Translations under genes and position numbers: made by a program | The notes under the pieces: model-generated | Databases searched by the model: none | The model's input: the letters and a program-made list of their open reading frames with translations, nothing else | What the model was told of the DNA's origin: nothing | In this document: positions 5,490-54,776 of the stretch, piece after piece | How the letters are laid out: the number at the start of each line of letters is the position of its first letter | Numbering within the stretch: the stretch's first letter is position 1 | From: Escherichia phage vB_EcoM-Ro121c4YLVW | Length of the DNA: 64,000 bases | Strand: one strand, 5' to 3' | Sequence record: NC_052654.1

Positions 5490-5840
5490 ATGAGTAATTT
5501 TGATGAAATTCAAAAACTTGTTTGGGATTTACCTGATGATGTTGATTACGTTTCAGATTATCTTTCAAAAGTTTACCCTGGGGTAAGCGTTATGATTGTG
5601 ACCAAAGATCCAATTAATTTGCCTCCTAATGTGGTAGCTTGTTGTGGGAGTGGTTCAGGGGAAGTGGAGCCTGTATCCCGTTGGGAATTAACTAAAGCTG
5701 TTTCAAAACGAAACGGTGAAGTTTTGAATATTGATATCGAGCAAATATGGACTTCTCCAGCAGCTAAATGGAATGATCCGAATGGTTGGGACTTGTTCTT
5801 CTGGGATAATGAAACTGATGATGAGGTATTTTTAAAATGA
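5490..5840 (+). CDS. Hypothetical protein
   Basis: RBS aggagag. 116 aa with no recognisable motif. Confidence 0.55.
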   Translation: MSNFDEIQKLVWDLPDDVDYVSDYLSKVYPGVSVMIVTKDPINLPPNVVACCGSGSGEVEPVSRWELTKAVSKRNGEVLNIDIEQIWTSPAAKWNDPNGWDLFFWDNETDDEVFLK

Positions 5841-50006: not shown

Positions 50007-50036
50007 ATTGTAACACATATAGAAACTTCGTGTCAA
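50007..50036 (-). promoter_or_regulatory. Sigma70-like promoter for the baseplate operon
   Basis: Minus strand reads TTGACA (50036-50031), 18 nt spacer, TGtTACAAT (-10 at 50012-50007). Confidence 0.55.
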
Positions 50037-50073: not shown

Positions 50074-52062
50074 TTAACCACCAGTGTTAGATTGTCCACT
50101 TAGAGTTGAAAGAGACAAACGTTGGAAAATGCTATTTCCGCTATTTTGAATTCTTGCATCAAGAATATTTCCAAACTCTGAAGAAGGGCTGATCGTAACT
50201 TTGATAAGATCACTTGGTATTGCTACCGTATTCTCAACAACAGGTTGATTACGAGCCAAACTTACGTTAGGTGTATAGGCTGATTCACGTAAATCTTCAA
50301 GAGGATTACCAAATCCAAAAGCACGTGTCCTTGTTTGTTCTCCTCTCCACATACGACCAATGTCTTGTGTATCAATACCTGTTAAATTGTACAACCAATC
50401 TGCTACAGGATTGCTGTCTCCACTTTGCGTTGCCTCGTATGCTTTTTGTGCCATAGATTTATTAGGATCTGTGTTGTCTCCGAATGTATCTGGGAATGTT
50501 TCTTTAAGCCAATTGGTAAAAGATCCGAAACCATCTCCCAACTCTTTAGCAAAACCTCCTAATTGAACTGTTGTCTTACCGAGTTCTTCACCTAAATCTT
50601 TGGCAAACTGATCTAGCACTTTAACGTTATCCAACCAAGAATCATCTTTAGGTAAGGCTTTCACAAAACCCTCTAAGAAGTGGTTCTGCATACCTTGACC
50701 TACAAGCTGAACTGTTGCAGCAAAACGAGTAAACTCTTTAGAAGCATCTATTTGTTCTTGAGTTAATGTTGCACCTGTTCTTTGAAGCATTTTCAATACT
50801 TCATTATACCCTTCGCCGTTTTTACTAAACATACGTTGGTAGTGCATAAGGTCATCACCAAGGTTTTCAAGAAGTCGCCCGATTTGAGCAGAGTTCATAC
50901 CTCGACGCTCACCTTCATTAACAGTAGCCTGAATAAAAGCTAAAGGATCGTTCTGTAAAGGTTTAAGCTGTTCTGGATTCCATCCAAACAAGTTCATAAT
51001 GTCATTTATGCCATTATCACCGCCTTTCCACTTCCCTTCTTTTTCATTCCACTTTGCAGCTAAAACGGTATTACCAAGACGTTCACGAACGTCTTTAATA
51101 TTATCTATTGATTTAATAATATTTGCAGAGTCTACACCGTTCTGTTCACCCCAAGCCGTCATTGCCAAAATAGCGTTGGCGTTTGTCTGAACGTTTTCAG
51201 CACCACGGCTTACAAGTTTAATTCTTTCGTTAGTATTCATCAACGTGTTACCAACTACAGAACCACCTGCAAACAGACCAGCACCTATCAAAGAGGATGC
51301 AATCATACGTGGATTAAGACCTGCTGCACCTTCTTTTAATTGTCCGTATCTACGATCACGATCACGTTTCTGTTGAGCTAATTCACGCTTACGGTTGCGT
51401 TCTATATCTCTAAGTTCACGATTTCGCATACGTATACGCATTTTAGCTTCTGCTTCTAGCTCTCTACGAATACGGCGACGACCGCGAACCTCGTCTTCTA
51501 TTTCAGCATTCTTTTCACGATGAGATCTGCGTAAAGCATCCAACTGGTGAGCAAGAGCTTGGTTCATACGTTGAAGAGTTATTTCACCCTTTTTGTATTG
51601 CTCTACAGCTTTACCCATAACGTCCCTAGCTTCTTGCATAGCGCCAGGACTGGCTTTACTAAATGCTCTTGCTCTGTAGTTAAAGTTCTGCAAACGAAGA
51701 TTACCTAAATCTTCCCTACGTGCTGCTGCTTTAGCTTCGCGTTCAGCAGCTTTACGAGCTTTTTCTTCTTCTCTTCCTTGCGGGGTTTTAGGAGTTCTAG
51801 GTCTACCAGATCCTCCTACAGGAGCACCCGCTCCAGCGGGAGTAGGTGCTCGCATAGGTTTTTGACTTTGAGTTTGAGCTTTCTTAAGTTCACGCTCAAT
51901 CTCTTTCATTTGTTGTCTAAACTTGGTCATGTTCATAGTGGGTTGCATTTTATTTGCAAACTTCTGAACACTCAACACGGCATCTTTTGCTTCCTTGAGA
52001 CTGTTCTTGTCCACCTTAAACGTAACCACGTTACTAATTTTGGAGGCGTTAATTTCTAACAA
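50074..52062 (-). CDS. Tail tape measure protein
   Basis: 662 aa. It has a long Arg/Lys/Glu-rich coiled region and a hydrophobic segment (MIASSLIGAGLFAGGSVVG). It sits after the chaperone genes. Confidence 0.85.
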   Translation of the reverse strand: MLEINASKISNVVTFKVDKNSLKEAKDAVLSVQKFANKMQPTMNMTKFRQQMKEIERELKKAQTQSQKPMRAPTPAGAGAPVGGSGRPRTPKTPQGREEEKARKAAEREAKAAARREDLGNLRLQNFNYRARAFSKASPGAMQEARDVMGKAVEQYKKGEITLQRMNQALAHQLDALRRSHREKNAEIEDEVRGRRRIRRELEAEAKMRIRMRNRELRDIERNRKRELAQQKRDRDRRYGQLKEGAAGLNPRMIASSLIGAGLFAGGSVVGNTLMNTNERIKLVSRGAENVQTNANAILAMTAWGEQNGVDSANIIKSIDNIKDVRERLGNTVLAAKWNEKEGKWKGGDNGINDIMNLFGWNPEQLKPLQNDPLAFIQATVNEGERRGMNSAQIGRLLENLGDDLMHYQRMFSKNGEGYNEVLKMLQRTGATLTQEQIDASKEFTRFAATVQLVGQGMQNHFLEGFVKALPKDDSWLDNVKVLDQFAKDLGEELGKTTVQLGGFAKELGDGFGSFTNWLKETFPDTFGDNTDPNKSMAQKAYEATQSGDSNPVADWLYNLTGIDTQDIGRMWRGEQTRTRAFGFGNPLEDLRESAYTPNVSLARNQPVVENTVAIPSDLIKVTISPSSEFGNILDARIQNSGNSIFQRLSLSTLSGQSNTGG

Positions 52063-52082: not shown

Positions 52083-52831
52083 TTAAACAAGTTTCTTAAA
52101 CAAATCTGACATTTTATTTGTCTGGTTTTGATGTTTTCTCTTTATTGAAGTGTCTTTAACATACATGGCTTCAACATACTCTTCGTATGTTAAATACTCA
52201 TATAGTTTTAAAAGATAATCTACACCGTAGTTATCCAATGTTTTCAGTGTTTCCGAGGTATCTTTAACGACTTTGCAAAGAATAACCTCATACCACTTCA
52301 AAGTAAGGGTTTTCGTTGCTGTGTCGATAGCATGTTCAATCGCAGGTGTTAATTTGCTGCTAAACTCGTCATCGCCTGAAGCTGTGTGAACAGTTTTCCG
52401 AAACCTCGTTTGAAAAAAGGGCCGTAGTTTACCTCCAGAACTTTAGCAGTAAGATCTAACACTAGTTCTGGGTGAGCCATAAATAATTCATCAAAATTTT
52501 CTGCAACGTTATAACCGTCTTGCGTATAAACCTCATCTAAAATTTTACGCAAAAAGACAGTTAAATTCTTTTCTTCCAAACCTGCAAAAAGTTGGATCAG
52601 TGCCATAGCAATACGTGACTCAAGGTCTTCGTCTGCCGACATTGTTGCTGTGCTATACATAGTCATAGGAACAACCAGAACACTACCCAATTCTGGAATC
52701 CTGTCAAACACTTTAGATGGACTCCACTTCATAATACGGAAAGTAACAGATCTGTTTCCATCTAACGGAATCTCAACTACTTCTTCTGGTCGAGCATATT
52801 TTTGAATTGTGTTATCTTGTTCTTGTGACAT
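52083..52831 (-). CDS. Tail assembly chaperone, long form made by a programmed -1 frameshift (GT-like)
   Basis: The -1 frame is open from the slippery site (52418-52412) through the 52301-52083 ORF, with no stop. The downstream ORF has no RBS and only a TTG start. Confidence 0.6.
52349..52831 (-). CDS. Tail assembly chaperone, short form (G-like)
   Basis: 160 aa, between the tube and tape measure genes. RBS gagaggaa. Confidence 0.7.
   Translation of the reverse strand: MSQEQDNTIQKYARPEEVVEIPLDGNRSVTFRIMKWSPSKVFDRIPELGSVLVVPMTMYSTATMSADEDLESRIAMALIQLFAGLEEKNLTVFLRKILDEVYTQDGYNVAENFDELFMAHPELVLDLTAKVLEVNYGPFFKRGFGKLFTQLQAMTSLAAN
52412..52418 (-). other. Slippery heptamer T_TTT_TTC (X_XXY_YYZ) for -1 ribosomal frameshifting
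   Basis: Minus strand reads GGC CCT TTT TTC AAA in frame 0. A shift to -1 reads ..TTT TTT CAA ACG AGG..., which continues into the next ORF. Confidence 0.6.
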
Positions 52832-52849
52832 ATTTTCCTCTCTAATGAT

Positions 52850-52870
52850 AAAAAGGGCATTTCTGCCCTT
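52850..52870 (-). terminator. Rho-independent terminator after the tail tube gene
   Basis: Minus strand reads AGGGCA-gaaa-TGCCCT followed by ttttat. Confidence 0.7.
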
Positions 52871-52876
52871 TATTTA

Positions 52877-53356
52877 TTATTGAATTGTCAGAGCAGAGAT
52901 TGAGTTAAGGGTGCTCAAACCTACACCAACTTCATTACGCAGAAGGCTTGCATCTTTAAGACCAATAACCCATTGGTTCTCTGTAATCATTTCGCCAATA
53001 GTATCTTCAGGCTGACTTTGAATCCATCCAATCGTGCTAATGTAATAGCCACGTGGGTCTTCCAAGTAAACACTGAATGCTACTTGACGAGTAGAATACA
53101 TTGTTTGTGCATATGTTGCAAGTACTTCGTTAGCTGGAGATGTGCGTTGCAAAGACATTGTGAGTGTTCCCAAACGGTTACGACTCAAAGCTAGTGAAAC
53201 GTCGCCATCAGTCCCTGAATAAGGGTTGATAATATCGTTAGATTTAGCAATAACGATTTTAGTATCAGCCGCAAAACCCCACGGTTCCCAACCACCTAAT
53301 GAAAGGATAACTTGAGATGGGTCGTAGGCCATTACGCCAGTAAGCATTTTATCCAT
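52877..53356 (-). CDS. Tail tube protein
   Basis: 159 aa, directly after the sheath gene. Motif: ILSLGGWEPWGFAADTKIVIAKSND...GTDGDVSLALSRNRLGTLTMSLQRTSPANEVL. Confidence 0.75.
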   Translation of the reverse strand: MDKMLTGVMAYDPSQVILSLGGWEPWGFAADTKIVIAKSNDIINPYSGTDGDVSLALSRNRLGTLTMSLQRTSPANEVLATYAQTMYSTRQVAFSVYLEDPRGYYISTIGWIQSQPEDTIGEMITENQWVIGLKDASLLRNEVGVGLSTLNSISALTIQ

Positions 53357-53402: not shown

Positions 53403-54776
53403 TTAGTTTGCAGTACGGTTAGTCAGGACGTTGACCTGAACTTTAACGTAATGGAAGAAGCCAGCGTAAACATATTCAATCTTCATCCCATCAACCAGAC
53501 GAGCATTGATTTGCGCATCAGTCATATCGGCACGAGAAGGAATATAAACAATAGGTTTCAGATCGACACGCAAACCAGTCTCTTCAGAAGTAACAACTTC
53601 ATTAGCGATGGAACCGTTGAGGATACCTACTTGGATCGGGTTAGCCAGAACAGCTTGTCGAATCAAAGCCAGACCGTTTGAAGTAGCACGAACACCACCA
53701 CCCAGCATAGACTGTTGTTTAAACAGTGTAAACAGTGATTCTTCTGTGCGAGCTTTAAACCACAAAGCATGAACAACATAGTCAACAAAGAAACCGCTAA
53801 CCATCAATCCGTCACGATAGAACAGAGTTCCATGCTCTTTACGATAGATGTTACCGTTCTGTTGAACAATATTGTTTTCCGAAGTCTGATCCAGTTTCTC
53901 GATCTCTACACCTACCAGTGTTTTACCGTGAAGAGTAGTCAAACCAGGTTGACGAGAACAGATTGCACCAACAACTGCTGCTTCTGGGAATACAGAATCT
54001 GCATCGGTCATCCACAAAGCAAAGCAAGTGTTATTATAACCGAGGTCATTCAGTCGTTCCAGAACGTTGTCTTCTGCTTTCGTTTTAATTCCAGGTTCAG
54101 AGCTAGAGAAGAAGTAAACTTTATCATTCTCTTCTACCCATGCAGCCAAAGCTAGAACATCTTCTGTTTCATGGGAATCTGAAAGGGTCCAGAACCAGCT
54201 ACTATCAATATCATGCAGAGCAGCAATATCTTCCGTAATAGCATTAGCATAGACAGTTTCTTGAGTGAAACCTGTGCTGTCAATAGAACCAAACTTACCT
54301 TCTACTGGAGTGAAAGTCATTGCAGCGCCGTTGTTAGCTACTGTAAACAGTGGGCCATAAACAAGATCTGCATTGATCATTTCAGTCAGACCAACTACAA
54401 TCTCTTGTGCAGTTGCAGTGTCATCAGCAATGAATTTAAATTCTTTTTTCTTGGTACCATTTTTGATGGTAATTGTGTAAGTTGCACTATCTTCTACGAT
54501 TGGAGTTAGAGTAAAGTTTGTAACTTCACGCTTACCAACCATGACTTGATCTGGTGGGAACAAACCGTTAAACAGTTTGACTGCCATAATATACGCTGGA
54601 TCATTTAATCCATAACCTGCTTCCAAAAGTGCATCGGAAGAAGAGTAATATTGAATCGCTTCGCCAGTTACGTTCTGACCTGTAAGGATCAGAGGAATAT
54701 CGAACTGGGTTTCACGAATTGATGTAGCACCATACAGTAAAGTTACGGTTGCTACCTTTTCACGAAAAGTTGCCAT
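53403..54776 (-). CDS. Tail sheath protein
   Basis: 457 aa, upstream of the tube gene. The codon usage is typical of highly expressed genes. This is a call based on position and size. Confidence 0.8.
   Translation of the reverse strand: MATFREKVATVTLLYGATSIRETQFDIPLILTGQNVTGEAIQYYSSSDALLEAGYGLNDPAYIMAVKLFNGLFPPDQVMVGKREVTNFTLTPIVEDSATYTITIKNGTKKKEFKFIADDTATAQEIVVGLTEMINADLVYGPLFTVANNGAAMTFTPVEGKFGSIDSTGFTQETVYANAITEDIAALHDIDSSWFWTLSDSHETEDVLALAAWVEENDKVYFFSSSEPGIKTKAEDNVLERLNDLGYNNTCFALWMTDADSVFPEAAVVGAICSRQPGLTTLHGKTLVGVEIEKLDQTSENNIVQQNGNIYRKEHGTLFYRDGLMVSGFFVDYVVHALWFKARTEESLFTLFKQQSMLGGGVRATSNGLALIRQAVLANPIQVGILNGSIANEVVTSEETGLRVDLKPIVYIPSRADMTDAQINARLVDGMKIEYVYAGFFHYVKVQVNVLTNRTAN

Follow-up and report, generated by a model that had tools for sequence, protein, structure and literature searches.

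A candidate programmed −1 ribosomal frameshift in the tail assembly chaperone locus of Escherichia phage vB_EcoM-Ro121c4YLVW and its relatives

Introduction

Long-tailed phages carry a G/GT pair of tail assembly chaperones between the tail tube and tape measure genes, and G/GT frameshifting is widely conserved among them (PMC5009743). The subject of the present analysis is the corresponding locus in a stretch of 64,000 nucleotides (nt) from Escherichia phage vB_EcoM-Ro121c4YLVW (record NC_052654.1; the whole stretch is referred to below as the window), in which an initial annotation had proposed that a programmed −1 frameshift joins two open reading frames (ORFs) on the minus strand. The G/GT studies are reportedly those of Levin (1993) and of Xu, Hendrix and Duda (2004, 2013 and 2014), and the arrangement is said to have been generalised beyond lambda in 2004. 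Another −1 site is found in Escherichia coli dnaX which, as reportedly described by Larsen in 1994, has the slippery sequence A_AAA_AAG, a Shine-Dalgarno (SD)-like stimulator 10 nt upstream and a 3′ hairpin.

Among phages closer to the one analysed here, a conserved GTTTTT −1 site was argued in December 2025 for the chaperone locus of Vandenendeviridae (Pakpunavirus Adele) and Andersonviridae (PMC12846349). That study places these two families as relatives of Vequintavirinae and Stephanstirmvirinae, and its analysis at the chaperone locus leaves the latter two groups out. It was the nearest report found in the literature searched, where no description of the present frameshift in phAPEC8-, phi92- or rV5-like phages was found.

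Comparison of the locus with known frameshift systems

Sequence similarity places the phage in Phapecoctavirus (Stephanstirmvirinae), as a phAPEC8-like myovirus, and the region in its tail assembly chaperone locus; the 4.8 kb around the proposed site share 99.4 % identity with Escherichia phages ESCO13, Schickermooser and phAPEC8_ev052, as well as with dozens of others. The first ORF of the pair encodes a protein of 160 amino acids (aa) that matches Pfam family PF21822, Phage_TAC_15 (E=1.3e-23, 84 bits against a 22-bit cut-off), and phrog_3840, tail assembly chaperone (E=2.8e-55), these family names being annotations and not tested functions. The only families matched by the extension in the −1 frame, phrog_16039 (E=1e-44) and phrog_10409 (E=4e-9), are of unknown function. 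The order on the minus strand is tail sheath, tail tube, ORF pair (52831–52083) and tape measure, and the phrog and Pfam matches of the neighbouring genes bear out the initial placement of the pair between the tail tube and tape measure genes (Table 1).

Judged by its reading frames and gene order, the locus has the classic lambda G/GT arrangement, with every feature that defines it at the sequence level. As for lambda gpG/gpGT, two ORFs, here on the same strand, are flanked by the major tail or tube gene on one side and by the tape measure gene on the other. The second, which has no start of its own, is read in the −1 frame and overlaps the first at its 3′ end, and a canonical heptamer lies in the overlap. 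Two products with a common N-terminal part are predicted, and no obligatory 3′ structure is evident. There are also differences from lambda. The proteins encoded here belong to PF21822/phrog_3840, and no similarity in sequence between them and lambda G or T was detectable; T_TTT_TTC (Phe-Phe) takes the place of G_GGA_AAG as the heptamer; and the phage has a genome of ~150 kb and a contractile tail with a DUF3383-type sheath. The P2 E/E+E′ and Mu-type systems (cited in PMC5009743) share the myovirus order of sheath, tube, chaperone pair and tape measure, as well as a −1 shift close to where the first ORF ends, and differ in protein family and slippery sequence.

The GTTTTT motif argued for Vandenendeviridae and Andersonviridae (PMC12846349) is contained in the sequence of the Vequintavirinae relatives, which read TG TTTTTT C. 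The run in the window is preceded by C (CCC TTTTTT C), and two overlapping heptamers result. The likeness to those two families is one of motif and locus.

Reading frames and predicted products

Around the site the zero frame of the chaperone gene reads AAC TAC GGC CCT TTT TTC AAA CGA. Reading the minus strand thus places T_TTT_TTC at 52418–52412 in exact X_XXY_YYZ register, as the initial annotation had it. A slip at the overlapping heptamer, C_CCT_TTT, would give a fusion protein identical to that of a slip at T_TTT_TTC. After the slip the reading is CAA ACG AGG TTT CGG and so on for 109 codons. The claim that this continuation runs through the 47-nt gap into the ORF at 52301–52083 was upheld, the frame ending at the TAA at 52085–52083; on the minus strand it is free of stops from 52442 to that TAA, and it overlaps the chaperone ORF by 94 nt, stop codon included (52442–52349). 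The +1 frame closes after 7 codons, by which a +1 frameshift was ruled out.

Translation reproduced the two products that had been predicted, of 160 and 249 aa with the first 140 residues in common; the long one has a mass of 28.8 kDa. Its extension comprises an RFR motif, a variable linker and a conserved C-terminal domain. Predicted tryptic peptides are VLEVNYGPFFK for the short form and VLEVNYGPFFQTR for the junction of the long form. In the ESCO13 and phi92 records, a ribosome binding site is annotated at the position equivalent to the GAGG ahead of the chaperone gene.

Table 1. Features of the chaperone locus and its neighbours (positions in the window)
Feature	Position	Strand	Details
Tail sheath gene	53403..54776	minus	phrog_205 E=3e-100; PF11863 DUF3383 E=7e-20
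Tail tube protein gene, upstream neighbour	52877..53356	minus	phrog_280 E=3e-35
Terminator-like hairpin	52852..52871	minus	AAAGGGCA gaaa TGCCCTTT then TT; in the 45 nt between tube stop and chaperone ATG
SD sequence GAGG of the chaperone gene	52837..52840	minus	5 nt 5′ of ATG; sequence reading
Zero-frame tail assembly chaperone gene ('G', TAC-N)	52349..52831	minus	ATG 52831, TAA 52351-52349; 160 aa, 18.2 kDa
GGAGG, possible SD-like stimulator in the elongating ribosome (unproven)	52432..52436	minus	ends 13 nt 5′ of the heptamer
Overlapping second heptamer C_CCT_TTT	52415..52421	minus	run = CCC TTT TTT C
Slippery heptamer T_TTT_TTC, proposed −1 shift site	52412..52418	minus	P-site TTT (Phe139), A-site TTC (Phe140)
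−1 frame extension ('T', TAC-C), predicted	52083..52412	minus	109 codons (QTRFRK...FKKLV) + TAA
'Intergenic gap' from G stop to nominal TTG	52302..52348	minus	47 nt; coding in the −1 frame by comparison (..LTPAIEHAIDTATKTLT)
Nominal TTG start of the 72-aa ORF	52299..52301	minus	no SD core in the 13 nt at -16 to -4
Tape measure protein gene, downstream neighbour	50074..52062	minus	phrog_16051, 1248 bits

Off-frame stops are frequent in the window because its G+C content is 39 %, and in ~59 ORFs (19,327 codons) the −1 frame stayed open for a median of 5 codons after any given codon. Heptamers of the form X_XXY_YYZ (Y = A or T) occurred in register 59 times in the same ORFs, and 109–110 open −1 codons followed only the two overlapping ones of the chaperone gene. 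The only other one with a long −1 frame, a T_TTA_AAA within the last codons of another ORF (5490–5840, plus strand), was rejected as a candidate: the arrangement is an ordinary ATGA stop/start overlap in which the next gene has its own GAGG.

Conservation of the heptamer among relatives

Homologous loci found in GenBank by tblastn were those of phiWec186, PD06 (phi92-like), FBKp34, 24-2-1 (Avunavirus), rV5, SPLA5a (Seunavirus), KB57 (Mydovirus), CB7 and CR9 (Certrevirus), pEp_SNUABM_01 (Henunavirus) and Vibrio phage S4-7; the UPEC06 locus was left out of the comparison. To these were added 47 loci from IMG/VR, spanning Stephanstirmvirinae, Vequintavirinae and uncultured lineages. An in-register heptamer was present in all 10 GenBank relatives from Stephanstirmvirinae and Vequintavirinae (to ~26 % chaperone identity) and in 47 of 47 IMG/VR loci, that is, in 57 of 57 relatives down to 24 % chaperone identity. 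The ORF pair was retained along with the heptamer throughout these 57, in agreement with the conserved G/GT-type arrangement that had been claimed. The form of the heptamer was T_TTT_TTC, with T_TTT_TTG in three distant loci. It lay 22–36 codons 5′ of the chaperone stop, and the −1 frame continued for 51–92 codons past that stop and was open back to the heptamer in every relative.

Codon use within the heptamer was compared over 47 distinct sequences. Phe139 was TTT in 47/47 and Phe140 was TTC in 45/45, the other two sequences having TTG, while two control columns of invariant Phe were split between TTT and TTC (26/21 and 14/33). The residue before the T run was Pro (CCT) in 19 sequences and Cys (TGT) in 28, with T as the third base in all 47; C_CCT_TTT was restricted to Stephanstirmvirinae-like sequences, and Vequintavirinae have TGT in place of CCT. 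A slippery-site constraint predicts a third base that stays fixed despite the change from Pro to Cys, and ordinary coding does not, which argues for selection at the nucleotide level. On these codon counts, selection acts on the bases of the heptamer, beyond the residues that they encode.

A second conserved string, GGTTTCG (52396–52402, minus strand), lies 9–12 nt 3′ of the heptamer and was also considered as an RNA signal; GGT was present in 45/47 and TTC in 40/47 sequences at ~30 % protein identity. Such a signal is unnecessary, because dual coding explains the conservation: the string gives Gly-Phe when read in frame 0 and Arg-Phe-Arg when read in frame −1, and both are conserved.

The downstream reading frame

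Substitutions between the window and nine Stephanstirmvirinae-like relatives were counted by codon position in the −1 frame. Differences at the first, second and third positions numbered 48, 34 and 84 in the gap (15 codons) and 249, 153 and 373 in the body of the 72-codon ORF, a third-position excess like that of the gap. In the overlap the counts were 99, 65 and 50, which is the pattern of the zero frame. This suggests that in the overlap the tail of the short protein is the constrained reading and the −1 reading a variable linker. The 20-residue zero-frame tail of the short form is itself conserved.

The −1 translation could be aligned across both subfamilies, with invariant R, F, A, W and E residues. 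Its parts are FF-x-x-RFR directly after the slip, a Gly/Ser-rich linker of variable length and a conserved C-terminal domain. This domain begins 5′ of the nominal TTG (..P-x-I-x-x-A-x-x-x-A-x-K-x-x-S-L-x-W..), and the A-I-x-x-A-x-x-x-A motif encoded in the gap is conserved. On this comparative evidence, the 47-nt gap is coding in the −1 frame.

The TTG at 52301 is probably not used as a start. The downstream ORF had been described as having a TTG as its only nominal start and no SD sequence, and the relatives agree: the start is not conserved, the codon aligned to TTG being Phe in several of them; among 18 relatives, 7 have no ATG, GTG or TTG before the conserved Trp; and an SD core is absent upstream of all candidate starts of the ORF. 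The phi92 and ESCO13 records mark ribosome binding sites for the neighbouring genes and none for the downstream ORF. Public records vary, starting the ORF at an ATT (52340) or at TTG 52301 (72 aa) or omitting it, and such discordant annotated starts are a sign that gene callers find no real start. The RefSeq record of ESCO13 (NC_047770.1, 72966–73223), for example, gives the ORF an ATT start and 85 aa (window position 52340, minus strand).

Proposed mechanism

Programmed −1 ribosomal frameshifting at T_TTT_TTC, or at the overlapping C_CCT_TTT, is the reading that we favour, with a probability of roughly 0.88, and it would yield a major chaperone of 160 aa and a minor one of 249 aa. Ribosomes would start at the ATG at 52831, and most would read to the TAA at 52349 and produce the short form. 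A minority, with tRNA-Phe on the P-site TTT and on the A-site TTC (52417–52412), would slip back by one base onto TTT TTT. Both tRNAs would re-pair fully after the slip because E. coli has a single tRNA-Phe, with anticodon GAA, that pairs with either TTT or TTC. The slipped ribosomes would then read CAA ACG AGG and onwards to the TAA at 52083, adding the 109-residue extension of the long form. By analogy with lambda gpG/gpGT, the N-terminal part common to both forms would coat the tape measure protein, with the extension serving to recruit the tube protein. Neither chaperone would remain in the finished tail, and a fixed slip frequency would set the ratio of short to long form. We infer the occurrence of the slip, its ribosomal nature, its efficiency and the roles of the two proteins.

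Several points weigh against this mechanism. The RNA structure that had been suggested downstream of the site was looked for and not found, the single-sequence fold of 52440–52320 giving z = -0.30 against shuffles and an RNAalifold consensus of 11 relatives giving 0 pairs 3′ of the heptamer. Frameshift efficiency may be low, because heptamers without a stimulator reached 2–10 times background in an E. coli reporter, in which tetramer motifs alone were barely shifty (PMC4066793). The compared sequences are related by descent, so that the conservation counts are not counts of independent events, and one of the two peptide patterns used with IMG/VR contained ..NYG[PC]F, which biased that sample towards loci that retain some of the T run; no such bias affects the GenBank set, which was collected by tblastn. 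In the one more distant relative compared, Vibrio phage S4-7, T_TTT_TTC is missing and the overlap contains A_AAT_TTT.

At the S4-7 locus (L015, KX507046.1) the ORF pair and the −1 overlap are kept, and A_AAT_TTT (1800–1806) is the sole in-register heptamer in that overlap. The site may have moved or changed in this lineage.

Regarding the strength of the signal, U_UU.C came second when A-site tetramers were ranked by their tendency to shift in systematic E. coli measurements, and all-pyrimidine heptamers were frameshift-prone (PMC4066793). These measurements fit a low-level shift of the lambda kind. The lambda G/GT frameshift, too, is not known to need a 3′ structure. The GGAGG 5′ of the heptamer is shared in part by the relatives: an SD core of at least 4 nt ending 13–14 nt upstream was present in 34 of 47 distinct sequences, with GGAGG in 12 and no core in 13. 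The Glu codon within the element was GAG in 34/41, compared with 35 % GAG elsewhere in these genes. The element is only a hint of a stimulator, because it overlaps conserved Leu-Glu-Val codons and the sequences are related. Its distance from the heptamer is close to the 10-nt spacing of the dnaX stimulator, and a partial core has this position in 34/47 relatives. Unlike dnaX, no 3′ hairpin was found here, the SD-like element is absent in 13/47 and coincides with the Leu-Glu-Val codons, and an efficiency of a few per cent is expected, as opposed to ~50 % for dnaX.

Alternative explanations

The fusion protein could also arise by transcriptional slippage, in which RNA polymerase adds one U on the T6 run and a minority of mRNAs is read into the downstream frame. 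Insertion of one base into T6 gives exactly ..GPFFQTR.., and protein data, like the conservation of the ORF, would fit either mechanism; the two cannot be separated by sequence because both yield the same fusion. Transcriptional slippage is used by some insertion sequence elements and type III secretion genes (PMC5009743). Against it, the run at this locus is only six T long, and folding showed no hairpin immediately 5′ of it. The productive slippage sites known in bacteria, reportedly including those of Penno (2015; cited in PMC5009743), have longer runs, or shorter runs after a nascent-RNA hairpin. In 47 of 47 distinct sequences, moreover, the run has exactly six T ahead of a C or G, with no drift to greater length, and the heptamer is a canonical ribosomal motif that is experimentally shift-prone in E. 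coli (PMC4066793). We therefore consider polymerase slippage improbable. It is very improbable that there is no recoding at all and that the downstream ORF is a separate small gene with a start of its own (TTG 52301, 72 aa, or ATT 52340, 85 aa), perhaps coupled to termination of the chaperone gene. Those public records that annotate the ORF do call it a separate hypothetical protein, and PHROGs keeps it as a family of its own, phrog_16039. Such a gene would have no SD core before any of its candidate starts, and its TTG would not be conserved. The sequence 5′ of its nominal start, gap included, shows coding-type substitution and conserved −1 residues, and the −1 frame is open as far as the heptamer in every relative. 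A separate gene would also give no reason why the heptamer is conserved at synonymous sites.

Some sequencing chemistries are prone to errors in homopolymer runs, and the split could in principle be an artefact (a true T7 and one continuous gene), the mark of a recent frameshift mutation or a frame open by chance. This reading is effectively refuted by the comparative data. T6 and the split are identical in 63 near-identical independent genome records and recur in every divergent relative, and the zero-frame tail of the short form is conserved, with overlap substitutions that follow the G frame. When the 249-aa fusion was searched against 5.8 billion proteins, all 41 matches were to the G part, with no fused form and no separate match to the T part; these 41 homologues were all 158–175 aa long, none being a single-ORF fusion. 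A profile of 16 chaperones found nothing better than E = 0.16 among PDB sequences, and a single-sequence AlphaFold2 model of the fusion had a mean pLDDT of 40 and was unusable.

A broader proposal builds on ribosomal frameshifting at this site, and it is doubtful. T_TTT_TTC would be one ancient, 'frozen' recoding signal of a superclade of ~90–150-kb myoviruses, made up of Stephanstirmvirinae and Vequintavirinae (analysed here) and Andersonviridae and Vandenendeviridae (PMC12846349). The signal would be free of 3′ structure and aided by GGAGG and, in the phAPEC8/phi92 branch, by a tandem C_CCU_UUU_UUC that raises the ratio of long to short form.

Annotation of the locus in public records

A joined coding sequence was absent from the 21 phage records that were examined in full, and neither two chaperone entries nor a frameshift product appeared in ~120 further feature-name rows from phAPEC8-, phi92- and rV5-like phages. 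The long chaperone is missing from all of the three or four dozen records covered for this and sister genera, the 21 in full and the others by feature names; its C-terminal part is entered as a 'hypothetical protein' of its own, with arbitrary starts (ATT, TTG), or its place is left empty. The device itself is well known in phages and no concept is changed; the public records of this group leave it unannotated. The main value is in annotation, in a correct proteome for phAPEC8-, phi92- and rV5-like phages used in therapy and biocontrol, and a corrected annotation would assign a function to phrog_16039 and phrog_10409. For the study of recoding, the locus adds an all-pyrimidine heptamer that is well conserved and lacks a detectable 3′ structure, which would make a clean natural test case for the efficiency of low-level frameshifting in E. 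coli.

About two dozen GenBank records labelled 'Campylobacter phage' (MG0656xx) matched E. coli phages of the Phapecoctavirus, Justusliebigvirus or rV5-like groups at this locus with an identity of 99 % or more. Similarly mislabelled-looking records were 'Acinetobacter phage' ABPW7 and 'Pseudomonas phage' PsgM04F (~77 % identical). The host labels of all these records look unreliable.

Neighbouring genes and transcription signals

The tail tube protein scored 24.4 bits against PF11681, KPP10_Orf10, just below the 25-bit cut-off, and its gene is named major tail or tail tube protein in the records of relatives. The tape measure ORF starts with TTG (52060–52062, minus strand) after a GAGG, with no in-frame ATG nearby, and is followed by genes for Dit-like, plug and hub proteins.

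The terminator-like hairpin between the tube and chaperone genes (Table 1) has counterparts in other records. In FBKp34 a terminator is annotated between the equivalents of these two genes, and the Schickermooser record lists two terminators somewhere under the 4.8-kb match. The hairpin probably lowers transcription of the chaperone and tape measure genes relative to that of the sheath and tube genes. A further hairpin with a T-run (50067–50050, minus strand) lies directly after the tape measure stop, and an 11/12 match to an extended sigma-70 promoter was found at 50036–50007 (minus strand), ahead of the Dit-like gene. The segment 50007–50067 looks like a boundary between transcription units inside the tail module.

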